DNA of 61,476 bases, filler included, from Chloroflexota bacterium (GCA_043754535.1; 4 parts of 4 records of this genome joined end to end with filler, not necessarily neighbours in it); one strand, 5' to 3'. Positions 1-15,743 are shown, counted from the whole stretch's first letter. Notes: generated from the letters alone by a model not told the origin. Translations and numbers: made by a program.

Positions 1-146
1 AGCACGTCGCCGTAGCGTTTGCCGACCGTGCGCGACGAGCCGCTGACTGCCCGCACCGCAAACCAGGGGTGGCCGCGCAGCAGACGCACGATGCGTGAAC
101 CTACCAACCCGGTCGCTCCTAGAACGCCGACCCCAATCCGATCCAT
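1..146 (-). CDS. asd: Aspartate-semialdehyde dehydrogenase, N-terminal part (runs off window)
   Basis: Not in ORF track; manual translation from ATG at 146: MDRIGVGVLGATGLVGSRIVRLLRGHPWFAVRAVSGSSRTVGKRYGDV = Rossmann GATG motif and HPWF of archaeal/fungal-type Asd; GAAGGAG RBS; overlaps end of aspartate kinase gene. Confidence 0.9.
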   Translation of the reverse strand, partial: MDRIGVGVLGATGLVGSRIVRLLRGHPWFAVRAVSGSSRTVGKRYGDV

Positions 147-1261
147 GGTCTTGCTCCTTCCTGGGCGATGCTCTCCCCCTGCGGTGCGACGCGGGCTGCG
201 TCGGCGAAGTAGCCTGCATTGTCCAGGCAATGTACCTTGTGCAGCAGGCGCATCGCCTCCGCCGACTGTTGGCCCTCGACCAGGTAGGTGAGCCGCAGCG
301 GCGAACCCTCGACGGGGATCGCCTCAATCCCCTGGCGGCGCAGGCTGGCGCGGGAGATCACATCCACCCGCTGCGACTCGCCCACGCCCAGGCCGACGAG
401 AGAGATGCGATCTTCCTCGCTGCCCACCCCGTCCTGCGGGTTGTACTTGAGACGGGCGACCCCCCGCACTAGCGTGTCGCGCTGCGGTTCGCTACTCTCT
501 GGCACCGCCACTGCTGCTTGCACATGAGCAACCAGGGTGCCGGGGTGGTTATTGAAGCTGGAGCGCACTAGGATAGGCAGGTTGTATTGCAGACCAACCC
601 GCACAGCACGGGGGTGCAACACGCTAGCTCCGTGGGCCGCCAACTCCAACATCTCGGCGTAGCTGATCCGCCCGATGCGGTCGGCCCGATGGACGATGCG
701 CGGGTCTGCGGTATACACGCCATCTACGTCGGTGTAGATTTCGCACCAGTCGGCGTGCAGGGCAGCCGCCAGGGCGACGGCGGTGGTGTCGCTCCCCCCT
801 CGGCCCAGGGTGTTGATCTCGCCCGGCTGACCAACGGCGCAGCCCTGGAAGCCTGCCACGATGGGGATGAAGCCGTGTTCGATATCGCGCAGAACCTGCC
901 GCTCGTCAATCGCTGCGATCTCTGCATTGCCATAGTTGCCGTCGGTGTGGATACCTGCCTGGGGGCCGGTCAGGGCGCGGGCAGGCAGGTCGAGGTGCTG
1001 CATCGCCAGGCTGAGCAGCGCGCAGGAGACGATCTCGCCGGTGGAGAGCAACAAGTCTATCTCGCGCCGTGCCTGTTCAAGCGTGCCATTCAACTGGCCC
1101 GCCAACTCAAGCAACTCGTCGGTAGTGTCGCCCATCGCCGAGACAACGACGGCGACCTGATGCCCCGCCTGCACCGTAGCTGCCACCCGCAGCGCGACGG
1201 CGCGGATGCGGCCCACGTTCGCCACCGAGCTACCGCCATATTTCTGAACGATTAGTGCCAT
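119..1261 (-). CDS. lysC: Aspartate kinase
   Basis: MALIVQKYGGSSV, VVVSAMGDTTDELL, TLGRGGSDTTA, IYTDVDGVYTADPR motifs; AGGAGG RBS; shortened ACT region. Confidence 0.97.
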   Translation of the reverse strand: MALIVQKYGGSSVANVGRIRAVALRVAATVQAGHQVAVVVSAMGDTTDELLELAGQLNGTLEQARREIDLLLSTGEIVSCALLSLAMQHLDLPARALTGPQAGIHTDGNYGNAEIAAIDERQVLRDIEHGFIPIVAGFQGCAVGQPGEINTLGRGGSDTTAVALAAALHADWCEIYTDVDGVYTADPRIVHRADRIGRISYAEMLELAAHGASVLHPRAVRVGLQYNLPILVRSSFNNHPGTLVAHVQAAVAVPESSEPQRDTLVRGVARLKYNPQDGVGSEEDRISLVGLGVGESQRVDVISRASLRRQGIEAIPVEGSPLRLTYLVEGQQSAEAMRLLHKVHCLDNAGYFADAARVAPQGESIAQEGARPWIGLGSAF

Positions 1262-1279
1262 CGCTTACCCCTCCTGGTT

Positions 1280-1316
1280 AAAAAAAGCCCCGTCCCTATC
1301 AATTGAGGGACGAGGC
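1280..1316 (-). terminator. Intrinsic terminator of T-box leader
   Basis: GCCTCGTCCCT-caattgat-AGGGACGGGGC followed by T7. Confidence 0.9.
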
Positions 1317-1630
1317 TGTAATAGCATCGTGTTTTCCACCCTGACTCGTAGCCGCCTTGCAGCAGCTAGCCTCAGCAGGTCAGTCCCGTAGCCCTGGCCC
1401 TGGTGGGAGCAGAGCATTGCGGGTTGTGACCCAGGCCCAGATAACGAAGGCCGATCCGTCCACCTTTACTGGGCAGCCGATCCTTGCCGTCGCGCCGACG
1501 CGACCAGATAGCGATGCCGTTCAGAGTAGCCGCTCCGAGGTGGTATTTCGTTCGCCCTAACTACCGCCCTTGCACTATCGGCGGCTCGCTGCCAGTCTAG
1601 CGAAACGTACTCGTCCTCATCTGCGCGTTT
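1280..1630 (-). promoter_or_regulatory. T-box leader RNA, predicted Thr specificity (ACC specifier)
   Basis: Minus strand: stem I GATGAGGACGAGTA...AGCGAG...TGCAAG...GAAAT-ACC-A-CCTCGGAGC (ACC at 1544-1542); stem II GAA/AGTA; CGTTA box; T-box AGGGTGGAAAACACG (1342-1328) pairing with CGTCCCT; terminator hairpin plus U-tract. Confidence 0.92.
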
Positions 1631-1662
1631 AGAGGTTTGTGCTGGAAAGCTATCCCCTAAAC

Positions 1663-1690
1663 AAAAAACCGCTCTCTGGTTAGGAGGCGG
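1663..1690 (-). terminator. Intrinsic terminator of the SAM-I expression platform
   Basis: CCGCCTC-ctaacca-GAGAGCGG-TTTTTT; 3' arm AGAGCG is complementary to CGCTCT at the 5' side of P1 (antiterminator). Confidence 0.8.
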
Positions 1691-1733
1691 CTAGCGTTCA
1701 GGTATAGCAAAGGTACCTGGCAGTTACTCGCTT

Positions 1734-1846
1734 CCCTTATCTTACCCCTTGCGGGGTCGGAATTGGCACCTGGACTCCAGGCGGCACTGCCTGGGTCTGG
1801 TTGTCGGGTTTCATCGGGCCGGTTCCCTCCACCCTCTTGATAAGAG
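1734..1846 (-). promoter_or_regulatory. SAM-I (S-box) riboswitch aptamer
   Basis: Minus strand CTCTTATCAAGAG-GGTGGAGGGA-ACCGGCCCGATGAAACCCGACAACC...GGTGCCAATTCC...AAGATAAGGG matches the SAM-I consensus throughout. Confidence 0.96.
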
Positions 1847-1871
1847 CGCAACTTCATATTAACTTGCGCGC

Positions 1872-1901
1872 ATTATAGCACAGGCGGTAGCCCCTTGTCA
1901 A
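1872..1901 (-). promoter_or_regulatory. Sigma70-type promoter of SAM-I/T-box/ask-asd transcript
   Basis: TTGACA-18 nt-TATAAT with TG extension. Confidence 0.85.
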
Positions 1902-1923
1902 GGACAGTTTAGCAGCTACCTGT

Positions 1924-4440
1924 TCAAGGCGATTGCGCTCGCAAGCTAGCTGCACCCGGTACCGCACTGGCTGCCGCCCCTACCACTCCTTCGTTGCCGA
2001 AGCTGTCCACTGGCACAACGGCGAAGTAGTAGCTGTTGCCGTTGAGCAGCGGTTGCGGTGACTTGCCACTATGCCAGGCTAGCAACTTGACCCGCGTTTG
2101 CTGGGCCACTGCGTCTAGCTCGACTACTGGGGAGAGGCTGGCAGTGTTGGTGATCTGCTGCTGGCTGGCGTAGATGCGGTAGGCCACTGTACTCGGCGCG
2201 GGGCGATAGGTGTGCCAGTCAAGCTGGATCGTGCCACTGATAGCCGCGTCGCTAGCGAGGGGCGAGACCGGTGGCTGGGCCGCCAGCCTGCGCTCGACCC
2301 TGATCAGCAACGGTTCACCAACGCTTAGTTGCTGACCCACCTCTGGTAGCAGCAGGCCCACCCGCAGGCTAGCGATCTGGCGCAAGTCAACGTGCCGCTC
2401 CAGCCGCGTCGTCGCCTCTTTCAGCGGCAAGACTAGCTGGGTGGCGCGGCCTTGCAGCAAGGTAGCCTGCCAGTTGTAGGAGGTGCCGCCCGCCTCGGCA
2501 ATGTTGACGCGCACCTGCGCCTGCTGCCCACTGCTGCGCGGGTCTGTGACCGTCAGCAGCAGGTAGTCGTAGCCAGACCAGTCGGTAATCGCAGCGGTGC
2601 GCTGGACGAAGGCCCAGGAGTAGCCCGCCACACTGCCAGTTGCGCCGCTGAATTGCAGGGTGCCGCTGACCATTACGCTGGCGGGTGGATCGGCCTGCCA
2701 GATACCAGTGACCGCTGAGGAGCCTGTTGTCTGGCGCAAGTAGAAAGGTTGTGGCACACTGTAGGCTTCTTCGTCACTGCGTTGGTCGTCCTTGCCGACC
2801 GCCCGTACCCGCCAGTAGCCGCGCCCACCCTCGTAATTAGAAAGAGGCAGGCTAGCGAGTTGGCTAGCAGTGGTGGTGATTGCTACAGGCTGGGCGAAGT
2901 CTGGGGTCTGCGCGACTTGCACGACGTAGCGACTTGCGCCCGCCAGCGGCTGCCAGGCGGCAGGGTGGGGTGCATCGCGCCGCAAGTCTGCGCTGAACAA
3001 GGTTGCGTTGTAGGCGGGTGCTAGCGGCTGTGGCCTGCCGATCCTCTCCGCCCGACCGCGCCGTAGCTGGTACACACCCTCGTTGACGCTGGAAACCTGC
3101 TGCACGAAGTCGGCGTAGGGTTGGTCGCTGGCCGTCACCAGCCCCCAGTTGTTGCTCTGCTCAGGCCGCTTGCCAATAGCAGGGTCGTCGGCGTAAGGGA
3201 ACCAATGCACGCCAACCACAAACGGACGCTGCAAGGCGGCGGCGATGAAGGTGCGGTAGGCAGCGGCGCGGGTGCGCTGGTCGGGAGCGACGGCACCAGG
3301 GGCGGGGAAGGCGTTGGGCAGGCCGCTGTCTGCTGCCCGCGCCGTGAACTCGGTGATCAGCACGGGTTTGCCACTCCACGCCCCGATCTCGTCCACAAAG
3401 CTGAGGTCGGGGTTGCTAAAGTCGCGCACGTAGAGGTTGATCGTCATCACGTCTACGTAGGGGATCGCCCCTTCGATGATCGAGCGGAAGGGCTGCGAGG
3501 GCAGCCAGCGGCAACCGAGGATCAGGTGGTTGGGGTCGCGGGCGCGCACGGCTGCACTCGTCGTCTTGAAGTAGCGGTCGGAGACTACTTTGAGGAAGCT
3601 GTCCTTGTCTGGCAGCGAGCCAGTGTAGGTGATGCTCTGGGCGGCCAGCAGGCTGGCAGGTCCGTCTCGGAAGCTGGCATAGCTGCTGCCCCAGGCTGCG
3701 TTCAGCCCCGCCACAGTGCCATACCTACCCGCCAAATGGCTGACCCAGGCCAGCTTGCTGCTGTTGGTGATCGGCTGCGCGATGATGTTCTCCACCACCG
3801 TGTTGTGCGGCGTGTCGTAGTAGACCCCATCCTTGTACCACCAGAGTTCGTTGTCCAGGTAGTAGCCAAGCAACCAGGGGTCTTGCACGTCTGCCGCACT
3901 GATTTTGGCGGCCACCTGCTGGCGAATGTGCCGCTCCCAGGCGGGGTCGAACACGTCTGGGAAGACCCAGTTGACGCGGCTAGGGGTGTCACCAACCAGC
4001 TTGAGCAGGCGGGTGTGGGGGAGACCACGCTGCTCCATGCGCTGGTCGCTCCACGCACCAACCGTGTTGAAGTGCCAACTTTGCAGGCGGGTCGCCGTCG
4101 TCTGCGCCCAGGCTTGCGGGTCGGCGTAGCTACGGCTGGCGTAGCTGGCGTAGCCGTCGGCAGTGTCCAGGCCGAACGTACTGCTGATCGAGTTCACACC
4201 GAGCGAGTAGAAGGCGTGGCCGCTGGGCGTGACTAGCCACCAACGATCCCCCTGCTGCGCCGTGCGGAAGTAGCCGGGAGCGGCGGTCAGCTTGAGGCCA
4301 GCGTCGCCGCCGTACTGATCCAGGGTGGAGGGAACAGGCAGCGACCTGGTGGCGGGCCGCTCCAGGGCGAACGAAGCCCCGCTTGCCAGCAGGATGGCAG
4401 CGACAAGGGCAAGAGCAAGATAGGGGCGAATACGTGGCAT
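1924..4440 (-). CDS. Secreted glycoside hydrolase, GH50/beta-agarase-like, with C-terminal Ig/Fn3-like domains
   Basis: Signal peptide; RWWLVTPSGH, FNTVGAWSD, FPDVFDPAW, DPWLLGYYLDNEL, GKPVLITEF, VVGVHWF motifs. Confidence 0.8.
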   Translation of the reverse strand: MPRIRPYLALALVAAILLASGASFALERPATRSLPVPSTLDQYGGDAGLKLTAAPGYFRTAQQGDRWWLVTPSGHAFYSLGVNSISSTFGLDTADGYASYASRSYADPQAWAQTTATRLQSWHFNTVGAWSDQRMEQRGLPHTRLLKLVGDTPSRVNWVFPDVFDPAWERHIRQQVAAKISAADVQDPWLLGYYLDNELWWYKDGVYYDTPHNTVVENIIAQPITNSSKLAWVSHLAGRYGTVAGLNAAWGSSYASFRDGPASLLAAQSITYTGSLPDKDSFLKVVSDRYFKTTSAAVRARDPNHLILGCRWLPSQPFRSIIEGAIPYVDVMTINLYVRDFSNPDLSFVDEIGAWSGKPVLITEFTARAADSGLPNAFPAPGAVAPDQRTRAAAYRTFIAAALQRPFVVGVHWFPYADDPAIGKRPEQSNNWGLVTASDQPYADFVQQVSSVNEGVYQLRRGRAERIGRPQPLAPAYNATLFSADLRRDAPHPAAWQPLAGASRYVVQVAQTPDFAQPVAITTTASQLASLPLSNYEGGRGYWRVRAVGKDDQRSDEEAYSVPQPFYLRQTTGSSAVTGIWQADPPASVMVSGTLQFSGATGSVAGYSWAFVQRTAAITDWSGYDYLLLTVTDPRSSGQQAQVRVNIAEAGGTSYNWQATLLQGRATQLVLPLKEATTRLERHVDLRQIASLRVGLLLPEVGQQLSVGEPLLIRVERRLAAQPPVSPLASDAAISGTIQLDWHTYRPAPSTVAYRIYASQQQITNTASLSPVVELDAVAQQTRVKLLAWHSGKSPQPLLNGNSYYFAVVPVDSFGNEGVVGAAASAVPGAASLRAQSP

Positions 4441-4543
4441 GGCGACTCCCTCAAGTTGGTAGGGCTGTGTTATAATATAGGCACCATGCGCCGCGTTGCT
4501 TCAGCCTCCGAAGCAAACGGGGCAAAGATGACTATCTGGAGGG

Positions 4544-6703
4544 ATGAAACCCAATTTGCTAGACAAGCTAAAGCGGCAGATGGCGGCTGTGCTGCTGATG
4601 GTATCGCTGGCGGCAGTTATCGCCTTGCTGGGTGGGGGCTTGCCCTCCCGCTATCTGGTGGACATTGGCGGGGCTGATGGCTCCTACGTAGGCGGCATGG
4701 CCCTGCCCACCTTCGCGGGCGACAAGCGCGAGATCAGCTACCGCCTGACGGGGCCGCAAAGCAGCCTGCGCTTCCCCGGCTGGCGTGGCCCGGCCACCCT
4801 CGCCCTCTACGCCTACTTCGACCCGACTCAGACTGCGCCGCCGACGGAGGTTCTCACCCTCACCGTCGCGGTTGAGGGGCGGGTAGCTGGGGTGCAAACG
4901 ATAATACGAGGCTGGAACTGGTATACCTACACGCTAGCCAACGCAGGCGACCAGATCGCCCTGACCACGCCAGTGCTGACCGACGTAACCGGGATGTACC
5001 AGGTTGGCGTTGCACTCGACCTGGCCCTCCTGCAAACAGAAGCACCCGTGCAGCGGTTCGACCTCTGGCCCACCCTTGCGCTGCTGCTGATCGCGGGATT
5101 GGCGGGCTATCTGCTGGCGCGGCTGCCAACGCGGGTGGCGGTTGCCGGTGGGGGGCTGGTGCTGCTGGGGCTGGCAGGGGCGTACATCTTCAGCCCCCGC
5201 CTGTTCATCCTCTATGCTGCCAGCTTGCTGATCGTGCTGTTCGCTTGCGGGCTGTTGTTGCGCTGGCAGAGGCCAGTGGGCAGGCTGGGTGGCTGGCTGT
5301 TCCTCAGCTTCTTGCTCACCTACCTGTTCTTTGTCAACGGTCAGATTTCGTCGGACGACGACCGCATCAAGCACGCGACTACGCTGGCGGTCACCCACCT
5401 CGACTTCAAGCTGGACGGCCCGATCCTCGGCACTTACTACAGCAAGTATGGCATCGGCCACAGCCTGGCTGAACTACCGCTGCTGCTCCCCCTGCGGTTG
5501 GCGGATGCGGTTAGCGGCGGCAACCTACCCTATCTACACAAACTGAGTGTGCTGCTGCTCAACCCGATCATCGGCGCACTAACCGCCTGGCTGCTCTACC
5601 TCACGGCGCGCCGCCTCTACGCCAACGACCGACTGGCCCTGGCCGTCGCCCTAATCGGTGGGCTGACCACGATCAGCGCGGCCTACGCCCTACTCACCTA
5701 CAGCGAGACCCTACTTAGCTGCCTGCTACTACTCACCTTCTACGCTTTCCTGCGCCACTTTGAGGTGGCAGAGCGTGACTGGCGGTGGTTGGCAGTGGCA
5801 GGGGTCGCCCTCGCCGCCCTGATCGTGACCAAGCAGGAGTACGTGCTGGCGGGAGTGGTAGCGGGCTGCTGGTGGCTGCTGCGGAGCCTGCGGGCGCAGG
5901 GTTGGCGGGCGGGGCTGCGGTTGCTGGGCAAGGGGCTGCTGCTGGCTGGGCCGATAGCGGCGGCGGTTGCCTGGCTACTGATCTACAACAAGATACGCAG
6001 TGGCAGCTTCGGCAGTTCAGGCTACGGCGCTATTGGCTTGCTGCTACCCCCCATCGGGAAGTGGCTGAACGGACTCTACGGGATGTTCCTCAGCAGCGGC
6101 AAGAGCATCTTTCTCTACTCCCCTCCGTTGCTGCTGCTCCCCTGGGCGATCAGCCGCTTCTGGCGCAGGTGGCCGTGGGAGGCCGGGCTGATCCTCAGCC
6201 TCAGCGGGCTGCTGGTACTGTTCTACTGCCGCATCAACTTCTGGAGCGGTGACCTGTCGTGGGGGGCGCGCTATCTTGTGCCACTCACGCCCCTACTGGT
6301 GCTGCCACTAGGCGCACTGTTGCAGGGCTATGGAGATTGGGCGCGGGCGCAGAAGGTCGGACTGGCGGGGCTGCTGGGTGCAGGGCTGGCGGTACAGGGT
6401 CTGTCGGCGGTTGGTAGCTTCTCGGTCGCCTTCTTCTATCAGTACAAGGACAGCAGTGCAGGCAACTACACCGACTGGCAGTACATCCCTGCCCACAACC
6501 CCTTGCTCGCCCAGCTCCAGGTAATCCTCAACGGTGAGTACAACATCCCGTTTAGCAGCCAGCTAAGTAGCTTCGGCCTACCTGCCTTGCTCGATTATCT
6601 GCTGCCGGGGCTACTAGTGGCAGGCATCATCCTGGCCTGGCGGCAGGTCTGGCGGTGGCAACTACAAGCAGTTGATGGGCCTGCCTGGCGAGCAAAAGGG
6701 TGA
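4544..6703 (+). CDS. Polytopic membrane glycosyltransferase (GT-C/ArnT-PMT-like)
   Basis: Many TM segments; SSDD loop, YYSKYGIGHS, SSGKSIFLYSP, WGARYLVP motifs. Confidence 0.7.
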   Translation: MKPNLLDKLKRQMAAVLLMVSLAAVIALLGGGLPSRYLVDIGGADGSYVGGMALPTFAGDKREISYRLTGPQSSLRFPGWRGPATLALYAYFDPTQTAPPTEVLTLTVAVEGRVAGVQTIIRGWNWYTYTLANAGDQIALTTPVLTDVTGMYQVGVALDLALLQTEAPVQRFDLWPTLALLLIAGLAGYLLARLPTRVAVAGGGLVLLGLAGAYIFSPRLFILYAASLLIVLFACGLLLRWQRPVGRLGGWLFLSFLLTYLFFVNGQISSDDDRIKHATTLAVTHLDFKLDGPILGTYYSKYGIGHSLAELPLLLPLRLADAVSGGNLPYLHKLSVLLLNPIIGALTAWLLYLTARRLYANDRLALAVALIGGLTTISAAYALLTYSETLLSCLLLLTFYAFLRHFEVAERDWRWLAVAGVALAALIVTKQEYVLAGVVAGCWWLLRSLRAQGWRAGLRLLGKGLLLAGPIAAAVAWLLIYNKIRSGSFGSSGYGAIGLLLPPIGKWLNGLYGMFLSSGKSIFLYSPPLLLLPWAISRFWRRWPWEAGLILSLSGLLVLFYCRINFWSGDLSWGARYLVPLTPLLVLPLGALLQGYGDWARAQKVGLAGLLGAGLAVQGLSAVGSFSVAFFYQYKDSSAGNYTDWQYIPAHNPLLAQLQVILNGEYNIPFSSQLSSFGLPALLDYLLPGLLVAGIILAWRQVWRWQLQAVDGPAWRAKG

Positions 6704-6706
6704 GCC

Positions 6707-7219
6707 TTACTTGCCGTTACCATTGCCATTGGTGGTGGCAAGTGGCGCAAAGGTAGCAAGGGCTGTGCTGCTGGGCATCAGTTCCTCAGCGGCGGCATCA
6801 TCCTTCATCGTGCTTTGGCCGCGGAACAGGCCGCCCTCCTCGATCAGCAAGCTGGCAACCGTAATGTCGCCCCAAACCTTGCCGCTGGCGACAATCTCCA
6901 GCCGATGGGTGGCGGTGACGTTGCCCCGAATCTGGCCCGCAACCATCACGTTCTGGGCAGTGATGGTCGCAACCACCTTGCCACTGCGCCCCACGATCAC
7001 GTTGCCAGCAGTGTAGACTTCACCCTCTACCATGCCCTCGATGCGGATCGTGCCTTCAGCCCGCAGGTTGCCGTGGATGCTAGTGCTAGCTCCCACCAGC
7101 GTCTCCGCCTTCTCCTCAACCATATTGCTGGGCGGCAAGGTCAATGCACCAGTAATCTGGCGCGGGGGGTTCGTCACCTGCTGATTGTTGTTGCCACTGT
7201 TGTTGCGAAAGACTGCCAT
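6707..7219 (-). CDS. Bactofilin (polymer-forming cytoskeletal protein)
   Basis: TLVGASTSIHGNL...IRIEGMVEGEV...VWGDI...LLIEEGGLFRG beta-helix. Confidence 0.95.
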   Translation of the reverse strand: MAVFRNNSGNNNQQVTNPPRQITGALTLPPSNMVEEKAETLVGASTSIHGNLRAEGTIRIEGMVEGEVYTAGNVIVGRSGKVVATITAQNVMVAGQIRGNVTATHRLEIVASGKVWGDITVASLLIEEGGLFRGQSTMKDDAAAEELMPSSTALATFAPLATTNGNGNGK

Positions 7220-7304
7220 TGCCTACTGCTCCTCTCACCTTAGCTGCACCAAAGAGGCTGGTGCAGAAGACCTACATGGTAATGCTGGCCCGTATTATAC
7301 CAGA

Positions 7305-8582
7305 TCAGCGGCGGAAGCGCATTGGGTTGAGCGCAACGTGGTCGCCGTTGTAAACGCCGTAGTGGATATGGGGGCCAGTAGACATCCCGGTGCTGCCGCT
7401 GCGGGCCAGCAGATCGCCGCGCTCGACCAAATCGCCGCGCTTGACTAGCAGGCGCGAGTTGTGGGCATAGAGGCTGGTGTAGCCGCTGGGATGGTAGACG
7501 CGCACCACACGACCATAGCTGTCATCCCAAGCTGCGTAGATCACCACGCCGTTGCCAGTTGCGTAGACAGGGGTGCCGGTATCCACCACAATGTCTACGC
7601 CAGGATGGAAGCCCACCTTGCTGCTGTCCCAGGGTGACCTGCGCCAGCCGAAGTACGAACTGACCTCGCCAGCAGAGGGGAAGCCGTGCGGGGTGTTGTC
7701 AAGAGCGTACTGACGAGCAAGGGCGGCTGCGGCAGCGTCGTTCTCGTCCTTGCGCGCCTTCTCTATGGCCCGCGCCTGGGCCTTCACCTGCTCTGCCTGC
7801 GCCCGCGCCTCGGCTTCCTGGCGCAAGGTCGCATCGGCCTCAGCCACCGCCGCCTCGGACTGCTGACCAGCCAGCATATCTACAGAGAAAACCATCATAT
7901 CGCTAAGTTGCTGGCTGGTCTGCTCTGCTTCGTTGCTCAGGCTGGCAAGCCAGACCTGATAGCTGTTCGCTTCCTGGCGATAGTTGCTGGCAAGGTCGTC
8001 TAGCGGAGCCGCTTCTACCTTGCTGTAGCCAGCCTGCGCCAGCGTGTAAGCGGGCTGGAAGCTCTGCGGCGTAGCAGAGGGGGGGGTTGGAGCAGGGGCG
8101 GGGGGGTTGATCTGGCCGCCCTGCGGGTCGCTGCTTGGCCCACCCTGAAGCAGGTCGCCCAGTTGCTTGCTCATCACCTTCAACTGATTTAGCTGACCTT
8201 CGAGGCTGCTGATCTGCTCTTTGAGGGCTGCCAGCTTGCGCTGTTCCGCTTCGAGGGTGCCGCCAGCGGTCGCCAACTGGCGTTGCTGGGTCTCTACCAC
8301 TGAGTTGAGACCACGTTCGCGTTCCTGCACCAGTTGGTGGCTGGCCGCCCCCTGCTGAAGCTGGTTCTGCAAGGCAGCGTTCTGCTGGTAGAGGGCGTAG
8401 AGGCCGCCACCAACCAGGAGCAGCAGCGCGGCAGCACCAGCCACCGCCAGCCGCCCCAGGTGCAGGGTGATCGGCTTGCCGCTGCGCCCAGCGATCAGCA
8501 CCAGGGTGAGGCCACGCCGTTCGCTGCGGGCCGCTTCACCGTTAAGGTCGCTCAGTTTGTGTAGCCGCGCCGTGTTTCGCAA
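7305..8582 (-). CDS. Membrane-anchored coiled-coil M23 metallopeptidase
   Basis: TM helix, coiled coil, HPGVD / YAHNS / STGPHIHY motifs; start moved to TTG 8582 (GAAGGA RBS) because ORF-track start 8648 lies in the -10 box. Confidence 0.92.
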   Translation of the reverse strand: MRNTARLHKLSDLNGEAARSERRGLTLVLIAGRSGKPITLHLGRLAVAGAAALLLLVGGGLYALYQQNAALQNQLQQGAASHQLVQERERGLNSVVETQQRQLATAGGTLEAEQRKLAALKEQISSLEGQLNQLKVMSKQLGDLLQGGPSSDPQGGQINPPAPAPTPPSATPQSFQPAYTLAQAGYSKVEAAPLDDLASNYRQEANSYQVWLASLSNEAEQTSQQLSDMMVFSVDMLAGQQSEAAVAEADATLRQEAEARAQAEQVKAQARAIEKARKDENDAAAAALARQYALDNTPHGFPSAGEVSSYFGWRRSPWDSSKVGFHPGVDIVVDTGTPVYATGNGVVIYAAWDDSYGRVVRVYHPSGYTSLYAHNSRLLVKRGDLVERGDLLARSGSTGMSTGPHIHYGVYNGDHVALNPMRFRR

Positions 8583-8646
8583 GCTAGGTTTCCTTCGACT
8601 TGAGGCGGGCAAGCAACATTCGCCGCTCGCGGTTGGTTCTATGTCC

Positions 8647-8676
8647 AATATAAGGCAAGTAGCCCCTTATTGTCAA
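8647..8676 (-). promoter_or_regulatory. Sigma70-type promoter for M23-bactofilin genes
   Basis: TTGACA-18 nt-TATATT; overlapped by direct repeat CAAGTAGCCCC (8656-8666, 8674-8684). Confidence 0.6.
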
Positions 8677-8813
8677 GTAGCCCCGCCAAATGTACTACCC
8701 ACTAGCAGCTAATAGTACCCCCAGCACTGACTTGGCAGGATTTAAGTTGCGAAATCGTGTGGTTTTCTGCTACAATGTTAGGACAGCAACCGTGTAAGTG
8801 GAAGGAACAGAGG

Positions 8814-10292
8814 ATGACAGACGAGATTAGCCGTATTCGCCAGCGAGGGATCAAGCTGGTTCTATGGATCTTTAATTTCCTAGTATGTGCCTGTGCTCTG
8901 TATGAGCTAGCTCAACCTCAATCAAACATACAGCTTGCTTTTGGCATCCTGTTTCTGCTGCTAGGCATTATCTGCCTTGCGCTCACCTATCTCAACCGGT
9001 TGCGACTAACCAGTTACATCCTTTTGTTTGTCATTATGCTCGGTGCTGGCGTAAGTATAGCCGTAGCTGGCCCCTTTACGGGCGTGTCTCTGATCGTGTT
9101 TGTTATGATCCCCGTAGCCTCGCTTCTATTTAGCGCGCGGGCATCGTTGATCGTCGCCGCTGTCGCCATTATTGACGTGACAGTGTGCAGTGCAATCTAC
9201 TATTTTGTCATTGAACCCACAGCATACAGAGAAGGCTTGCCGGGCAAAAGTGCAGCTATGCTGATCGGGCTTACGTTCCTTACTGTGTCAGTATGGAGCG
9301 CAGGGGTGATCAGCGAGACAGCGAACCGTATTAGTAGCAGGCGCACTCACGAACTGGAGGCTGCGCTTGCTCAGGTACTCAGCAAGCACTCATTGGAGGA
9401 GCAGACCAGCACGGCTATCCTCAAGGTGACGGGCGGGCTGAATGAAGTTAGCGGTTATCAGCTTGCCAGCGCGAATGAGCAGGCGGTTGCGCTCTCCCAG
9501 GTGACGACCACGATTGAGGAGTTGTCGCAGACGGCCCTCCAGATCGCCGAGTCTGCCGCCAGCCTTGACAACAACGCCGAGCAGACCTTGCAGGCTGTCT
9601 CCAACTCGCAGGCAGCAGTAAATGACAGCTTGCAGGCGATGGTGCAGATCAGAGCGCAGGTGCAGCAGATAGTAGAGCGCACCATCGCCCTCAACGAGCG
9701 CATCCAGCGGATCAGCGAAGTGGTAGGGGTAGTATCACGCGTCGCGGCTGAGATTCACTTGCTGGCCCTCAATGCAGCAATCGAGGCAGCCGGGGCGGGC
9801 GAGGCAGGCGAACGCTTTGCCGTGGTCGCCGGTGAGGTAAAGAAGTTGGCTCGTAGGGCGCAGGAGCAGGCGGCGGGCATTCGTGGATTGGTAATCGAGG
9901 TGCAAAGGGCGAACTCGGCCAGTGTGATGGCGACCGAGCAAGGTCTGAAGGACTCCGACAAGGGGGCAGAGCAGGCCCGCATCGCCAGCGAAGCAAACAT
10001 TGAGGTGATCGACCTGGTGGGCAGCACTACTGCTCGCACACGGGCGATCACCCTTGCCACCCAGCAGCAACGCAGTGCTAGCCAGCAGGTGGTGGAGACG
10101 ATGCGGAGTCTGCAAGTGGCGGCAGCAGGGGTTGCCACTGCCAGCGGTCAGATTGCGGCGATGGCTTTGGAACTACGCGCCCTTGCCACCCAGCCGCAGC
10201 CTGATCTGGGGCAGGAGATAGCTGCCTTGCCTGCGCCGAACCCCACTCGTGGCGGTCGCCCAACCAGTGAACTAAGCCTGCAATCCAGCTAA
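8814..10292 (+). CDS. Methyl-accepting chemotaxis-like protein with multi-TM sensor
   Basis: IHLLALNAAIEAAGAGEAGERFAVVAGEVKKLA hairpin tip; 5-6 N-terminal TM helices; ATG 8814 with GAAGGA/GAGG RBS. Confidence 0.93.
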   Translation: MTDEISRIRQRGIKLVLWIFNFLVCACALYELAQPQSNIQLAFGILFLLLGIICLALTYLNRLRLTSYILLFVIMLGAGVSIAVAGPFTGVSLIVFVMIPVASLLFSARASLIVAAVAIIDVTVCSAIYYFVIEPTAYREGLPGKSAAMLIGLTFLTVSVWSAGVISETANRISSRRTHELEAALAQVLSKHSLEEQTSTAILKVTGGLNEVSGYQLASANEQAVALSQVTTTIEELSQTALQIAESAASLDNNAEQTLQAVSNSQAAVNDSLQAMVQIRAQVQQIVERTIALNERIQRISEVVGVVSRVAAEIHLLALNAAIEAAGAGEAGERFAVVAGEVKKLARRAQEQAAGIRGLVIEVQRANSASVMATEQGLKDSDKGAEQARIASEANIEVIDLVGSTTARTRAITLATQQQRSASQQVVETMRSLQVAAAGVATASGQIAAMALELRALATQPQPDLGQEIAALPAPNPTRGGRPTSELSLQSS

Positions 10293-10335
10293 CCACCCCA
10301 CCCAACCTCTCTAGCAGGCCAGACCCAACCCCCTG

Positions 10336-11664
10336 CTACTCCTCGATCTTGCCTCGGCTGAGACTGAAGGAGGAGAGCAGCGCGAGGAAGCCAAACATGG
10401 TGGCGAGGATGAAGACGAACTGGTAGCCAAACCAGTCGATCAAGCTGCCACCGAGGACGGGGAAGAAGGTGAAGATGCCGAGGATGGTGTTCAGGTAGCC
10501 GATATATTCGCTGCGGCTGGCGGCGGGTGCAATGTTGAGCAGCACATTGAGGTTGACGATGTTGGCCGCCCCCGCTGCGATGCCGCTGAAGATGAAGACC
10601 GCCGCGAAGGCGGTTGCCACCGCTTGCCCGCTGACCAGCAAGGGGATCAGCAGCGCACTGGTCGGCACCACCGCGACCGAGAGGGCGGTCAGGATCATCA
10701 TCCGACGGTTGCCCCCGAAGTCGGCCAGCGGCGACCAGATCAGGTTGCTGAAGATGCTGGCGATGGTTAGGGCGGCGATGTAGAGAGCGGCGATGCTGTC
10801 GGCGGCCCCCAGACTGCGCGTGGCATAGACGATATAGAAGGGGTCGGCGATGGCCGAGAGGGCCAGCAGGATGCGGGCTAGCAGGAAGTAGCGGTAGTTG
10901 CGGTCGGCGCGCAGGTTGCCAGGGCCGCGCCGCAACATCTGTAGCACACTGAGTGGCTGTGGCACACTGGTTTGCGCTGGCTCGCGGATCAGCACCCAGG
11001 AGATGATCCCGCCGATGATCAGCACGGTAGTGATCGCAAAGATGATCGCAAAGTTGAGGGGGAAGGCTAGCGGACTACCCACACGGTTGCCTTCATCCAA
11101 CAGCAGCTTGATGATGCCGCTAGCAGCCAGGGCCAGCAGGCCGCCGCTGAAGTTCCGCAGCCCGAAGAACAGACCGCGCCGCCGGGGAGGGATTACCTTG
11201 CCCACCATGGCGATCCAGGGGATAGCTGAGACCCCTGCCGCCAGTGAAGTGACGATATAGAACAGGTAAAAGAGCAGCAGCAACAGCGTGTAGTTGGCCC
11301 CGTCGCCTGCCAGGAACAGCGTGCTGAGGGTAATCAGCACGAAGCTGGTAATACGGATTACCCCACTGGTTGCGTACCAACGCATTACTAGCGGTTGGGC
11401 CTGCGCCCGCCCAGCAACGAACAGTTGTGGCAGCAGGTAGGAGCCAGTGGTGATCGCCGGGATCAGGCCAACCAGGATATTGCCACCGCCCAGCCTGCTG
11501 ACAAATAGAGCAAGGACGAGGGTTGGCGAGATGAAGGCGGTGACCAGGTTGAAGAAGGTGCCGTTCAGCACACCGAGGCTGAAGTTACGCCGTACCTCCC
11601 GCTGCGACAGGCGCGCGGGGGGCGGCGGGGTGGGTTGCTCGTTTTTCTCCGCAGCGTCAGCCAT
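10336..11664 (-). CDS. MFS transporter
   Basis: About 12 TM helices; PPRRRGLFFGLR, LADFGGNRR loops. Confidence 0.88.
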   Translation of the reverse strand: MADAAEKNEQPTPPPPARLSQREVRRNFSLGVLNGTFFNLVTAFISPTLVLALFVSRLGGGNILVGLIPAITTGSYLLPQLFVAGRAQAQPLVMRWYATSGVIRITSFVLITLSTLFLAGDGANYTLLLLLFYLFYIVTSLAAGVSAIPWIAMVGKVIPPRRRGLFFGLRNFSGGLLALAASGIIKLLLDEGNRVGSPLAFPLNFAIIFAITTVLIIGGIISWVLIREPAQTSVPQPLSVLQMLRRGPGNLRADRNYRYFLLARILLALSAIADPFYIVYATRSLGAADSIAALYIAALTIASIFSNLIWSPLADFGGNRRMMILTALSVAVVPTSALLIPLLVSGQAVATAFAAVFIFSGIAAGAANIVNLNVLLNIAPAASRSEYIGYLNTILGIFTFFPVLGGSLIDWFGYQFVFILATMFGFLALLSSFSLSRGKIEE

Positions 11665-12056
11665 TACTCACCCGCTGGTGCGATCTCGATGTAGTCCCGC
11701 TTGAGCATTTCGCCGCCACCCATGCGGGCCATCAACTGGGTGCGCTGTTCGCCATACTTATGCTGGATGATCTCCTCGGCCATGCGCTGCTCTACCTCGT
11801 CCAAGACGCGGGCGTACCCAGCCACTTCGGGGCCAGTCGGGTTGCCGCTGCGGTCGCTGGCGGCCAACGTCACTGCACTGCTGTTGCGAATGCGCTTGAT
11901 CTTGCCCGCACCGAGCATCGTCTGCACATAGAGCCTGCCCGCGTGATAGGCGAACCAGACGGCGGTGTGAACTGGCTCACCGCTGCGTCGGTAGGTACTC
12001 AGGCGGATAAATTGCTCCGCTTCGAGGGCGGCGAAGTTGTCATGCTGCTCGTTCAA
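11664..12056 (-). CDS. PPOX-class F420-dependent oxidoreductase
   Basis: LSTYRRSGEPVHTAVWF, GKIKRIRN motifs. Confidence 0.9.
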   Translation of the reverse strand: MNEQHDNFAALEAEQFIRLSTYRRSGEPVHTAVWFAYHAGRLYVQTMLGAGKIKRIRNSSAVTLAASDRSGNPTGPEVAGYARVLDEVEQRMAEEIIQHKYGEQRTQLMARMGGGEMLKRDYIEIAPAGE

Positions 12057-12088
12057 TCGTTCTCTCCGTGTTGGTTTGGTTGCGCCTT

Positions 12089-12117
12089 ATTCTAGCCGTT
12101 TGCTGCCACTCTGTCAA
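12089..12117 (-). promoter_or_regulatory. Sigma70-type promoter for PPOX-MFS genes
   Basis: TTGACA-17 nt-TAGAAT. Confidence 0.7.
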
Positions 12118-12199
12118 CGCCGCAGCCTGCCACAGCCCGGTTGCCGCAGTAAGTAGCAGCTAAGTTGTGCCGCCGCCACTTTGGTCGAACGGCGCAGCC

Positions 12200-13321
12200 C
12201 TACTGCGGCTTGCCCGCATAAGCGGAGTAGACGAGGCCGTTGGGGGCGGTGCCGACCGCGATGGTGGTCAGCAACTTGTTGCTCTGGCCGTCGATCACCG
12301 TCACGCTGTTGTCCTTGACGTTGGTCACGTAGAGATTGCCGTTGTTGGCGGCTACGATGCCGTGCGACTGCTTGCCGACCGTGATACGGTCAACGGGCTT
12401 GCCACTACCGTCCGTCGTGTTATAGACCCACACCTTACCGTCCCCCTCACAAGCGACGTAGAGACTGCCCTTGCTGTCCAGCCAGATCATAGCGGGCTGA
12501 TTGCCGGTGCGCCACAAGCCGCGCTGGGGCAGGCGGGCATGGCTGGCGGTGTCGATCAGCGACAGGCTGCCGCCGAGGAAGTTGCTGACGTAGAGGCGGC
12601 TGCTGTCTGCACTGAAGTTTAGCTCGAAGGGGTTGGCCGCCCCGACCGCGATGGTAGCAACTACCTTGCGCGTCGCTACCTCTACCGCCGTCACCGTATT
12701 ATCGCTCGTGCTGGTGACGTAGACCTCCTTGCCATCGGGCCGCACCCGCACCCCATGTGGCACCTTGCCCACCGCGAGCTTCTCGATCACCTTGTAGCTG
12801 CTGGCTTCGACCGCCAACAGCTTGTTATCTTGCCCCATGCTGACGAATACGTACTTGCCGTCGGGGGTGAAGGCGAGGTCGTCGGTCTGGCCGTCGCTCG
12901 CGATCTTCGCCAGTGGCGTGCCGTTGCTGACGCAGAAGACCTGCAAGAACTTCTCGCCATAGAGCGTAACCCACAGTTCGCGGTTGTCGGGGCTGACCGC
13001 GACATGGTGAGGGCCACGCCCGGTGGAGATAGCGTTGAACCGCTGGTTGCTAGCTACGTCGATCACGCTCACGGTGTCGCCAAGCTGGTCAGCAACAAAG
13101 ATGCGACCCTGTGGGGTGTAGTGGATTGCGGCGGCGGCGCGGCTAGCTAGCTGGCTAGCATCTGGCCCTGCCGCGCAGGGGTCGCCACTGCTGGGCTGGC
13201 TCTGCAAGGCAAGTGACTGCCCCCCATCGTCGCCGCAGCCCGCCAGCGTAAGGCAGAGCAGGGCCAAGACAAACAGATCGCTAAGATAACTTGCCAAAAC
13301 GTTTACCTTTGTCATCAACAA
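12200..13321 (-). CDS. YVTN/YncE-family beta-propeller lipoprotein
   Basis: LAGC lipobox; repeats VGKVPHGV..PDGKEVYVT, LYVTN..DNSVTVID. Confidence 0.88.
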   Translation of the reverse strand: MLMTKVNVLASYLSDLFVLALLCLTLAGCGDDGGQSLALQSQPSSGDPCAAGPDASQLASRAAAAIHYTPQGRIFVADQLGDTVSVIDVASNQRFNAISTGRGPHHVAVSPDNRELWVTLYGEKFLQVFCVSNGTPLAKIASDGQTDDLAFTPDGKYVFVSMGQDNKLLAVEASSYKVIEKLAVGKVPHGVRVRPDGKEVYVTSTSDNTVTAVEVATRKVVATIAVGAANPFELNFSADSSRLYVSNFLGGSLSLIDTASHARLPQRGLWRTGNQPAMIWLDSKGSLYVACEGDGKVWVYNTTDGSGKPVDRITVGKQSHGIVAANNGNLYVTNVKDNSVTVIDGQSNKLLTTIAVGTAPNGLVYSAYAGKPQ

Positions 13322-13354
13322 TCCTCATTCTAACAACTCTGGAGGCCAAATCCG

Positions 13355-15743
13355 TCAGGGCTTCGGGGTAAAGTTGGGGGTGGGGTAGGGAGTGAGGTCC
13401 AGGTCGGACTTCTCCACGTCGAGCGAGGTTTCCACCAACAGTGGCTCGTGGCCGGGGCGGGTTACGCTCAGGTCGAAGGCCCAGCCGCCGCCCATCCTCA
13501 GCAGCAGCGGCCCAGCGTAGCTGCCGTCACCGACGAACTTCGCGGCCAGGGGGTCGGCGAGGTGGCCGTGGGCCGCCATAATACCCTGCACGTTCACCGT
13601 CGCGTCGTTGATCGGCTGGCCTGCATGGTCGCTCAGGCGGAAGCGGAGGTTGACTAGGCCAGAGCGGGCAGGGTCGGGGTCGGTGGTGATCGCGACGTTG
13701 AGCAGTTCGCCCACCTTGCCGCGCAAACTGCCGCCCGCGAGGGTGTAGCGAAAGGCGGCCTTCACATCCTGCGGCTGGTTGTAGCGGCGGAAGACCGCGA
13801 CGATCTGGTAGTTGCCGTCCAGATTGAGGTAGGGGGCGGGCGGTACGACGAAGCTGCCCCCGGTTTGTGCCTCGGCCAACAGGCGGTCGCTAGTGCTATC
13901 CTCAAGTTGGGTGAGGACGAGGGCAGCGTTCAACACACAGTTTGCCCCAGGAGTGGGCGTAGCAGCACAAGGCAGGAGGGGGCCGCTCGCATCAGCGAGG
14001 TGAGCAATCAACAGGTCATCGTCGGCATGGCTGAGGCTGAGGGTGACGGTGAGGCCGCGCACCTGCTGGCTGATCGTCAGCGGGGGGCTGGCAACTACCG
14101 TGGGGCCGCTGGCAAACAGGTCAACCGTTGGCATGGGCTGCTGCGGCTGTGGTCTGCTTGCAGTGGCACTTGCCAGCGGGCTGGGCGCGCGAGCTAGAGC
14201 GGTCGGTTGGATGGCAGCAGCAGCAGCGGTTGGCTGCTCGCCACTCGGCGCGGAGAGGGTGAGGTAGGCGGAGGCGACTAGTACGACGCTGAGTAGCACC
14301 GCTTCGATCCGCACGCTGCGACGAAAGGCAGCAACGATGCGGCTGAAGCCAGACGCTGCGTTCTCCTCTGCGCGCTCCTGCACAGATGAGCTTGCAGCCA
14401 GGCGCGGTGTCACCCGCAACAGATTGAACGCGCCCAGGGCCAGCAGGGGTAGCAGCAGCAGCACCTTGAGCAAGATCGCCCGCCCGTAATCGCTGTTGAT
14501 CGTGCTAGCCAGGGTGGGGCGGTGCGCCAGATAGCTGGCCGTGCCGCTGACCGCCAGCACCACCACGCTGACCACTGCTAGCTGGCTGAAGCGGCGGATA
14601 GTGGGGCGCAGCAGGAGCGGACGGTGGGCCGCAGCCAGCAACCGCTGCTGGGGCAAAAGCACAAAGACAAAGGCGAAGATGCCGCCGACCCAGAAGGCCG
14701 TTGCCAGCAGGTGGCTGAGGTCGGCCAGTGGTGCAATCTGCTGCACCAGGCTCCCGCCCGCCTCCTTGCTGGCTGCCGCCGCGTGGCCGCTGAGGGACAG
14801 CGCGAGATAGTAGCTGCTACCCAGCAGCACGAGGGCGGCCCACAACCAACGGCGGTAGCTGCCGAGGGCATAGCTGATCAGCAGCAGGGCTACCATCGCT
14901 AGCGCAGCAGCAAAGCGCAACTTGAAGTAGAGGCCGAAGTCGCTGCTGAGAAGCGCGTTGACCACGTTGAGGTTGCCCAGCACCGCCCCCACGCTACTCT
15001 CCGTCGCCCGCGCTCCTTGCATCAGCAATTCGGCCAGCAGGCTGAGGACTAGCAGGCCACCAGCCAGCAGTCCCAACGTCCCGAAGCGGCGGCTGAGGCG
15101 GCGGCCAGTCGCCGTCTGTTCGCTCACTGGCAACCCAGCCACCCCACTTGGCTGCACAAACAGGGCGAAAGCAGCTCCACCCACGAGGATCGCCGCCAGC
15201 AGGAAGCTAAACCAGCGCACTGCCACATCGAGCGGGGTCGCCTGCTGCGTCTCCTCGCTGCCGCTACCATCGCCAGTGGTGGCCGCTGCGTCGGTTGGCT
15301 GCTCGCTGGCAGGTGGGTCGGCGGTCGCCTGCGCCGTGGTCAGTGGGGCTGTGGCGGTCAGCGGTTGGCTTGCCCCAGTCACGGCAGTCGGCTCTGCACC
15401 GAGGATGCGGAAGGGGATGCTGCCCCGCGTCAGATGGCCGTCCAGGGCAGAGACGACCTTCCACTGCACAGTATATGCGCCGGGCGGCAGGTTCGGCTGG
15501 GCAAAGATTGATACCTTGTCGCCTTCGATCAACGGCGGGTGGTCAAGCTCAAAGTGCGTGCGGCTACGGTCGAGCAGGGCGAAGGTGCTGAACTCCGGCT
15601 CTGCGCCCTCGCTGAAGGTGATCACGATCCGCTCTGGCGACTGCGCCAGCCGCGCTCCTGCCGCTGGGGTCGAACCCGTCAGCCGCGAGTGCGCCAAACT
15701 AACCCCGCTGACTGCGAAGCTGAGCAGCAGAGCGGCCAAGAGG
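13355..15743 (-). CDS. CopC-CopD fusion copper uptake/resistance protein with C-terminal FixH/YtkA-like domain (5' truncated by contig end)
   Basis: AHSRLTGSTP, WKVVSALDGHLTRG (CopC); LSGHAA, HLLATAFWVGG, YGRAILLK (CopD); MAAHGH...MGGGW (YtkA). Confidence 0.92.

Follow-up and report, generated by a model that had tools for sequence, protein, structure and literature searches.

The locus considered here lies on the minus strand of a stretch of 61,476 nucleotides, filler included, from a Chloroflexota genome (G000); this whole stretch is called the window in what follows. Two RNA sensors of different classes stand there one after the other, and the order of elements, all of them on the minus strand, is promoter, SAM-I riboswitch, terminator, T-box, terminator, ask and asd. 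The features are, with window positions:

1872..1901, minus strand: sigma-70 promoter TTGACA-18-TGcTATAAT with an extended -10 (12/12 match)
1734..1846, minus strand: SAM-I (S-box) aptamer, P1 to P4 (RF00162, 64.1 bits, E 1.3e-13)
1659..1692, minus strand: predicted SAM terminator, a stem of 9 pairs with a single bulged A, a CUAACCA loop, then U6GU3 (folding, -11.2 kcal/mol)
1303..1632, minus strand: T-box, comprising Stem I (specifier loop and K-turn), a Stem II that carries a large insertion, IIA/B, Stem III and the T-box sequence (RF00230)
1542..1544, minus strand: specifier codon ACC (Thr); next come A1541 and the helix CCUC 1540-1537 (partner GAGG)
1335..1338, minus strand: UGGA of the T-box bulge, its A placed to read discriminator U73, which fits tRNA-Thr
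1276..1317, minus strand: T-box terminator, a 12-pair stem at 1317-1286, then a U-run (terminator scan)
1270..1275, minus strand: AGGAGG, a ribosome-binding site 8 nt upstream of the ATG (read from the sequence)
119..1261, minus strand: ask, aspartate kinase, 380 aa (NCBIfam aspartate kinase, E 1.6e-106; in Pfam, AA_kinase only)
1..146, minus strand: 5' part of asd (aspartate-semialdehyde dehydrogenase), beginning at 146, the rest being cut by the contig end

The contig that carries these features, C34, covers window places 1-15743 only, and places 15744-61476 are off that contig or N. On the upstream side, an open reading frame of 838 aa (window 1924-4440, minus strand) ends 20 nt before the promoter and has no match in NCBIfam or Pfam.

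A preliminary description of this locus had placed one strong promoter at 1901-1872, and this stands: on the two strands between 1100 and 2100 it is the sole promoter-like site, shuffled sequences giving a mean of 0.3. Its hexamers are TTGACA at 1901-1896 and, after 18 nt, TATAAT at 1877-1872 with TG before the -10, and transcription is expected to start near 1865, at the head of a predicted leader of about 600 nt with two attenuators in series. The gap from the U-run of the first terminator to the T-box model, initially put at about 35 nt, is indeed short, but it measures 26 nt; there is no open reading frame between the two elements.

The same description had reported a complete SAM-I aptamer with its own terminator, and had proposed scans with the SAM and T-box models of Rfam as well as a search for the pair in related genomes. 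The SAM match spans positions 1-108 of the 108 of the model, and its 64.1 bits are to be set against a gathering score of 44.4 (Rfam). The hairpin that follows, with its stem at 1692-1667 and U6GU3 to 1659, was missed by a simple terminator scan because the stem is bulged. No strong canonical antiterminator of the SAM switch could be drawn by folding for G000, the best alternative having in common with the 5' arm of the terminator no more than the final GGG of P1, at a cost of about 1 kcal/mol; in G002, from a sister genus, the predicted antiterminator, GGGAGCGG paired with CCGCCUUCC, is canonical. Variants of SAM-I that bind spermidine are known to associate with polyamine genes (PMC10853860), whereas the gene context is here that of methionine and SAM, an operon with metY, metX and hom, and a sister copy of the SAM riboswitch precedes metK.

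The second sensor had been described as a full T-box with an ACC specifier and a second terminator, and all three were recovered. The RF00230 match is of full length (1-219 of 219, E 2.1e-12), but its 63.2 bits do not reach the gathering score of 93. This is no cause for worry, since seven of the eight T-box matches in G000 fall below 93 bits and one only passes it, the T-boxes of the aminoacyl-tRNA synthetase genes pheS, glyS, thrS and valS scoring 69.2, 54.2, 41.5 and 85.6 respectively; the orthologous T-box of G002 reaches 96.1 bits. The specifier loop shows the GAGG/CCUC helix, ACGAGUA (with the S-turn AGUA) on its 5' side, and a 3' side that ends in AAAU-ACC-A. The register of the specifier was calibrated on the four synthetase T-boxes of G000, all of which display a codon, an A and a 4-bp helix:

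pheS T-box: codon UUC-A, bulge UGGU, cognate tRNA-Phe with A73
glyS T-box: codon GGC-A, bulge UGGA, cognate tRNA-Gly with U73
thrS T-box: codon ACC-A, bulge UGGA, cognate tRNA-Thr with U73
valS T-box: codon GUC-A, bulge UGGU, cognate tRNA-Val with A73

In each of the four, the fourth base of the bulge can pair with the discriminator that the cognate tRNA carries in the same assembly. The ask T-box has ACC-A and UGGA, exactly the pair of the thrS T-box, and U73 is a rare discriminator, found in only 7 of the 46 tRNAs of G000 (two Thr, two Cys and three Gly). The tRNA-Thr(GGU) is missing from the G000 assembly, which is 89% complete; it is present in G001, of the same genus, and in G002, G003 and G020, with U73 in all four. 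ACC is also the commonest threonine codon in long open reading frames (18,024 of 32,733, or 55%). The combination of ACC with UGGA indicates that the ask T-box of G000 would be specific for tRNA-Thr. The 5' arm of its terminator shares sequence with the antiterminator's 3' strand, and the terminator hairpin is computed at -22.7 kcal/mol, against +2.6 kcal/mol for the antiterminator alone. The bulge UGGAAAAC has 8 nt where the canonical form is UGGNACC, identically so in G000, G001 and a metagenome contig (L156), and this might weaken the sensing of the tRNA 3' end.

Several other T-boxes and tRNA calls came up in these genomes and are recorded here for their own sake. In G003 (C295:3769-4431; L045 1501-2163) a tRNA-Thr(GGU) gene is preceded on the same strand, at a distance of 349 nt, by a Thr-type T-box (ACC, UGGA), whose homologues in G002 and G004 lack any recognisable downstream gene. 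Another T-box, in G000 (C128:85991-86274; L022), has the specifier UGG-C (or GGC-A) with the bulge UGGC, calling for G73, which fits tRNA-Trp, and precedes a gene for a cysteine desulfurase-like class-V aminotransferase, an unusual target. A 93-nt 'tRNA-Pyl(CUA)' called by ARAGORN at C31:4032-4124 of G000, with five of seven acceptor pairs, is probably a false call; a tRNA-Sec was called on C84 of the same genome.

How far does the tandem extend? When the 640-nt leader was compared by BLAST with 41 genomes of the order, 18 gave a match, over the whole length in G000 and G001 only, the other genomes matching the SAM part alone. Among 19 loci fetched and analysed with Rfam, the SAM aptamer is present in all and a T-box adjoins it in five (G001, G002, G003, G004 and G020). 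The search among relatives thus brought out the tandem in the five genomes, out of five, of family f1, to which G000 belongs, and in one genome, G020, of family f3. Both terminators are present in these six leaders, the stem after the SAM aptamer differing in sequence from one to another. Counting G000, ask is found downstream in 11 of 20 loci, the contig of G003 stopping 70 nt past the T-box. In six further genomes a SAM riboswitch stands alone, 147-183 nt before ask (G009, G017 and G030 in f2; G010, G012 and G022 in f3; five if the unpublished G012 is left aside), so that the association of the SAM switch with ask looks like the older state, and the T-box like an addition. The nearest named Ask homologues come from Dehalococcoidia/Chloroflexota metagenome-assembled genomes. 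A crude motif screen of the upstream 1 kb at 80 loci with Ask similarity, spread over many phyla, flagged nine, and Rfam bore out none of the nine. A pattern scan of metagenomes (end of SAM P1, 94-124 nt, start of T-box Stem I) returned 13 stretches, one of which, L156, has SAM plus T-box and is nearly identical to G000; the 12 others were discarded as chance matches, Rfam not finding SAM plus T-box in them.

Comparison of G000 with G001 gives a yardstick of constraint. Their ask genes agree at 182 of 218 four-fold degenerate sites (83.5%), the SAM aptamers at 113 of 113 positions, the SAM expression platforms at 71 of 75, the T-boxes at 316 of 332 aligned positions (95%) and the 26-nt spacers at 23 of 26. 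The identity of the aptamer and of the T-box is far above that of the four-fold sites of ask: both elements are under purifying selection.

This weighs on two ways in which only one of the sensors would matter. In the first, the T-box of the genus of G000 would be decaying, or would read another tRNA, leaving in practice control by SAM only. Its score under the gathering cut-off and its non-canonical 8-nt bulge would fit with decay, and UAC, a tyrosine codon, overlaps ACC in a register shifted by one, the shifted register in which the likely AUG of the sister genus also sits (see below). Decay sits badly, however, with a T-box that is 95% identical between species that have diverged to 83.5% at synonymous sites, and in which the terminator is intact, as is the antiterminator; all four calibrating T-boxes conform to the standard register, and the tyrosine reading was rejected for G000, as UGGA demands U73 and tRNA-Tyr has A73 in G000, G001 and G002. 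We regard this explanation as improbable. In the second, it is the SAM element that would count for little: its hairpin is bulged and weak (-11.2 against -22.7 kcal/mol), and it could mainly yield a short stand-alone RNA or serve as a first gate that leaks heavily, with expression set by the T-box and only trimmed by SAM. Terminated riboswitch RNAs that act in trans are known elsewhere. Yet the arrangement with a SAM switch before ask and no T-box is the commoner one in the order, with its six loci, which argues that the SAM switch controls the operon on its own, and the aptamer is perfectly conserved between G000 and G001; this second possibility seems to us quite improbable.

The genes placed under this leader go further than the two that are visible in the window. 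In G001 the leader is followed by ask, asd, metY (O-acetylhomoserine sulfhydrylase), a gene for a TauE-like membrane protein, metX (homoserine O-acetyltransferase) and hom, in an order that is the same in G002, and neither Rfam elements nor strong promoters nor strong terminators were found between the operon genes of G001. In G000 the operon is spread over two overlapping contigs: C34 begins within asd, and the remaining genes, 91-99% identical to those of G001, are found at the extreme end of C56, which overlaps the start of C34. The regulated unit is, as predicted from this gene order, ask-asd-metY-(TauE-like)-metX-hom, a six-gene operon leading from aspartate to homocysteine, and this explains the presence of a SAM riboswitch at its head. 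The control of ask and asd that had first been proposed is retained in so far as these two genes are there, but the operon does not end at asd, four more genes following it.

What this operon feeds can be delineated from the gene complement. Matches in G000 are single, with one homologue of ask, one match for hom and one strong match for asd. Neither dapA nor lysA was found in G000, an incomplete genome (89%), and dapA was above cut-off in none of 21 relatives (genomes of the order, the unpublished G015 included, of which nine reach 90% completeness or more), in a search that was positive in 13 of 14 control genomes; LysW, which marks an alternative lysine route, was found in none of the five genomes of the family. 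A canonical thrC is present in G000 (263.5 bits) and also in G001. On this evidence, the pathway would feed methionine and threonine only. As ask, asd and hom are found once each and no diaminopimelate branch was found, the two sensors of the leader appear to report the two end-product branches that remain, methionine/SAM and threonine.

The logic of the device would then be as follows. A single promoter would give rise to a leader of some 600 nt, with two independent transcription attenuators in series. With SAM bound, P1 would close and the terminator at 1692-1659 would form. Further on, the T-box would read tRNA-Thr(GGU) via the specifier ACC and its 3' end via UGGA, and only uncharged tRNA-Thr would stabilise the antiterminator, which is weak, so that it can compete with the strong 1317-1286 terminator. 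Because the polymerase must pass both attenuators, output would be roughly the product of two probabilities, P(no SAM) x P(uncharged tRNA-Thr), a series logic that follows from the presence of one promoter and two terminator-bearing elements with no promoter between them. It is likely, in our opinion, that such a series gate, 'NOT SAM AND uncharged tRNA-Thr', controls the six-gene operon, most likely in a graded manner. The AND gate with two inputs of the preliminary description survives in its serial architecture, but is less plausible as a strict Boolean operator, which would starve one branch whenever the product of the other is plentiful: plentiful threonine would shut metY and metX, and plentiful SAM would shut the only route to threonine. 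Graded, cumulative repression is favoured because the first hairpin is weak and attenuators are generally leaky; expression would be full when both products are short, intermediate when one is short and minimal when both are plentiful. We infer the single transcript, the ligand responses and the graded behaviour from sequence.

The awkwardness of a strict AND would also disappear if a promoter that escaped recognition were located between the SAM terminator and the T-box, or before metY. There would then be two separate units, with a logic nearer to OR or to independent controls, and an internal promoter has been described in the adenine/T box(Tyr) tandems, in the part of Sherlock et al. (2022, PMC9481103) that deals with them. 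Weak promoter matches (8/12) do occur in the interval between aptamer and T-box in two of the six tandem leaders, but that of G002 begins inside Stem I and that of G020 lies on the U-run of the terminator. The absence of a second promoter, as first noted in G000, extends to the six leaders, in none of which the interval contains a sigma-70-like site of at least 9/12, and the gap in G000 measures only 26 nt. In the 8.4 kb of the G001 operon the sole 12/12 promoter is the site before the SAM aptamer, both hexamers of which are invariant, with the 12/12 match kept, in the six leaders. Promoters for other sigma factors could conceivably lie between the elements or before metY. All in all, separate units appear unlikely, and the series gate is kept as the working scheme.

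The second input of this gate does not seem to be the same everywhere. In G002-G004 and in G020 the specifier region reads AAAUGC and the bulge UGGU. In the standard register AAAUGC presents UGC-G (Cys), and shifted by one it presents AUG-C (Met); the basal helix of G020 can be extended to 5 bp, which would bring AUG into the standard position. The six tRNA-Met genes retrieved from G002-G004 all have A73, as UGGU demands. Methionine is thus a reasonably probable assignment for the sister genus and G020; cysteine is kept as a minority reading, of low probability, because UGGU calls for A73 and tRNA-Cys has U73 in G000 and G001. The Thr-type pair, ACC with UGGA, occurs only in G000, in G001 and in L156, the metagenome contig. 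Stem I of the ask T-box of G000 is 95% identical to that of G001, 63-64% to those of the ask T-boxes of G002-G004, and at most 58% to those of 19 other T-boxes compared, G020 among them at 56%. This similarity, together with the identical position, modestly suggests that the specifier and the base that reads the discriminator were changed in place. That a paralogous Thr T-box might have replaced the one before ask was considered and is not favoured, Stem I being nearer, if modestly so, to the ask T-boxes of G002-G004. As for the target pathway, thrC gives only sub-cut-off matches in G002, G003 and G004 (128-142 bits against 167), and G020 has a canonical thrC yet a Met-type leader, so that the correlation between type of leader and thrC is only partial.

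The aspartate kinase of Corynebacterium glutamicum is subject to concerted feedback inhibition by lysine and threonine through its ACT domains. The Ask studied here aligns with it (PDB 3AAW) over residues 1-255 only, and 28 residues replace the ACT1 domain of about 92 residues; the likeness of residues 284-344 to ACT2 amounts to an insignificant 1.9 bits, and Pfam finds no ACT even at E 10. The part of Ask that is poor in ACT features is the C-terminal third, window 119-520 on the minus strand. Because ACT1 is lacking, the usual allosteric site is probably missing from this enzyme. The likeness to C. glutamicum is that the signals of two end products are brought together at the aspartate family's first enzyme; the difference is that integration there is a matter of protein allostery, whereas here, with an Ask lacking ACT1, it appears to have moved to the mRNA leader. 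One may go further, tentatively and at rather less than even confidence, and propose that the RNA leader took over concerted feedback: with an ACT1-less Ask and the diaminopimelate branch lost, methionine and threonine would be integrated by RNA alone, and the second input would have been re-programmed in place from methionine (AUG, UGGU) to threonine (ACC, UGGA) within one family.

How does this compare with what has been published? The preliminary description had taken the pairing to be uncharacterised. As a pairing of classes this does not hold: the part of Sherlock et al. (2022, PMC9481103) drawn upon here gives seven SAM-I/T box(Met) and two T box(Met)/SAM-I tandems before metX/metY, as computational predictions of 'NOT A AND B' gates, next to other riboswitch/T box pairs (ppGpp/Leu, adenine/Tyr, glycine/Ser and AdoCbl/Val). 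Those SAM-I/T box(Met) tandems share with ours, as there presented, two RNA classes in the same order, an OFF switch and then an ON switch, each with its own expression platform, within one 5' UTR, and the operon here also includes metY and metX. In them, both inputs report a single branch and the T box comes directly before metX/metY, whereas in ours the specifier is that of threonine, the shared ask and asd come first, and hom is included. None of the terms threonine, aspartokinase, aspartate kinase or lysC appears in the main text of that paper. The Met-type leaders of G002-G004 and G020 resemble the tandems of this published set, as far as it is given there, and might conceivably overlap with it. 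The SAM-I/AdoCbl tandem before metE, a NOR gate as summarised in the same article, likewise puts two complete riboswitches in series, SAM-I first, each with a terminator, so as to give one transcript two inputs; in the summary both are OFF switches for small molecules, without a tRNA sensor, and the target is a single methionine gene.

T-box tandems have, for their part, been reported before hom, thrC, thrB and dapG in Bacillota (PMC12452182). They resemble the present case, in the sections of that survey concerned, in that aspartate-family genes, with threonine pathway targets, are attenuated according to tRNA charging, and they differ from it by using the same class twice, without a SAM input. 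Table S20 of this 2025 survey has no row for 'SAM T-box' and two rows for 'T-box SAM', both for Clostridium sulfate-assimilation operons, and the sole operon with contiguous riboswitches and an aspartokinase in the material consulted from it is a T-box/T-box case (PMC12452182). In the part used here of the early T-box surveys, the T-boxes of Chloroflexi are those of ileS and trp only (PMC2494555). Full-text literature searches combining SAM riboswitch with aspartokinase, or S-box and T-box tandem with aspartokinase, brought incidental matches only. Within the compass of these sources, the SAM-I/T box pairing is already catalogued, and what is new is the threonine specifier, the operon led by ask, and the lineage.

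Mixed-class riboswitch tandems are the clearest natural instances of signal integration by RNA only, and very few of them join two metabolic branches. Here, a cofactor sensor and a sensor of tRNA charging would stand together ahead of a single operon that feeds methionine and threonine, and the leader offers a compact two-input part for synthetic biology. That the sister genus should have kept the same scaffold with another specifier, probably that of methionine, makes this family a natural experiment on the change of one input of a gate; should the tentative scenario of a leader that took over concerted feedback be true, it would be a natural case of the rewiring of one input of an RNA logic gate.
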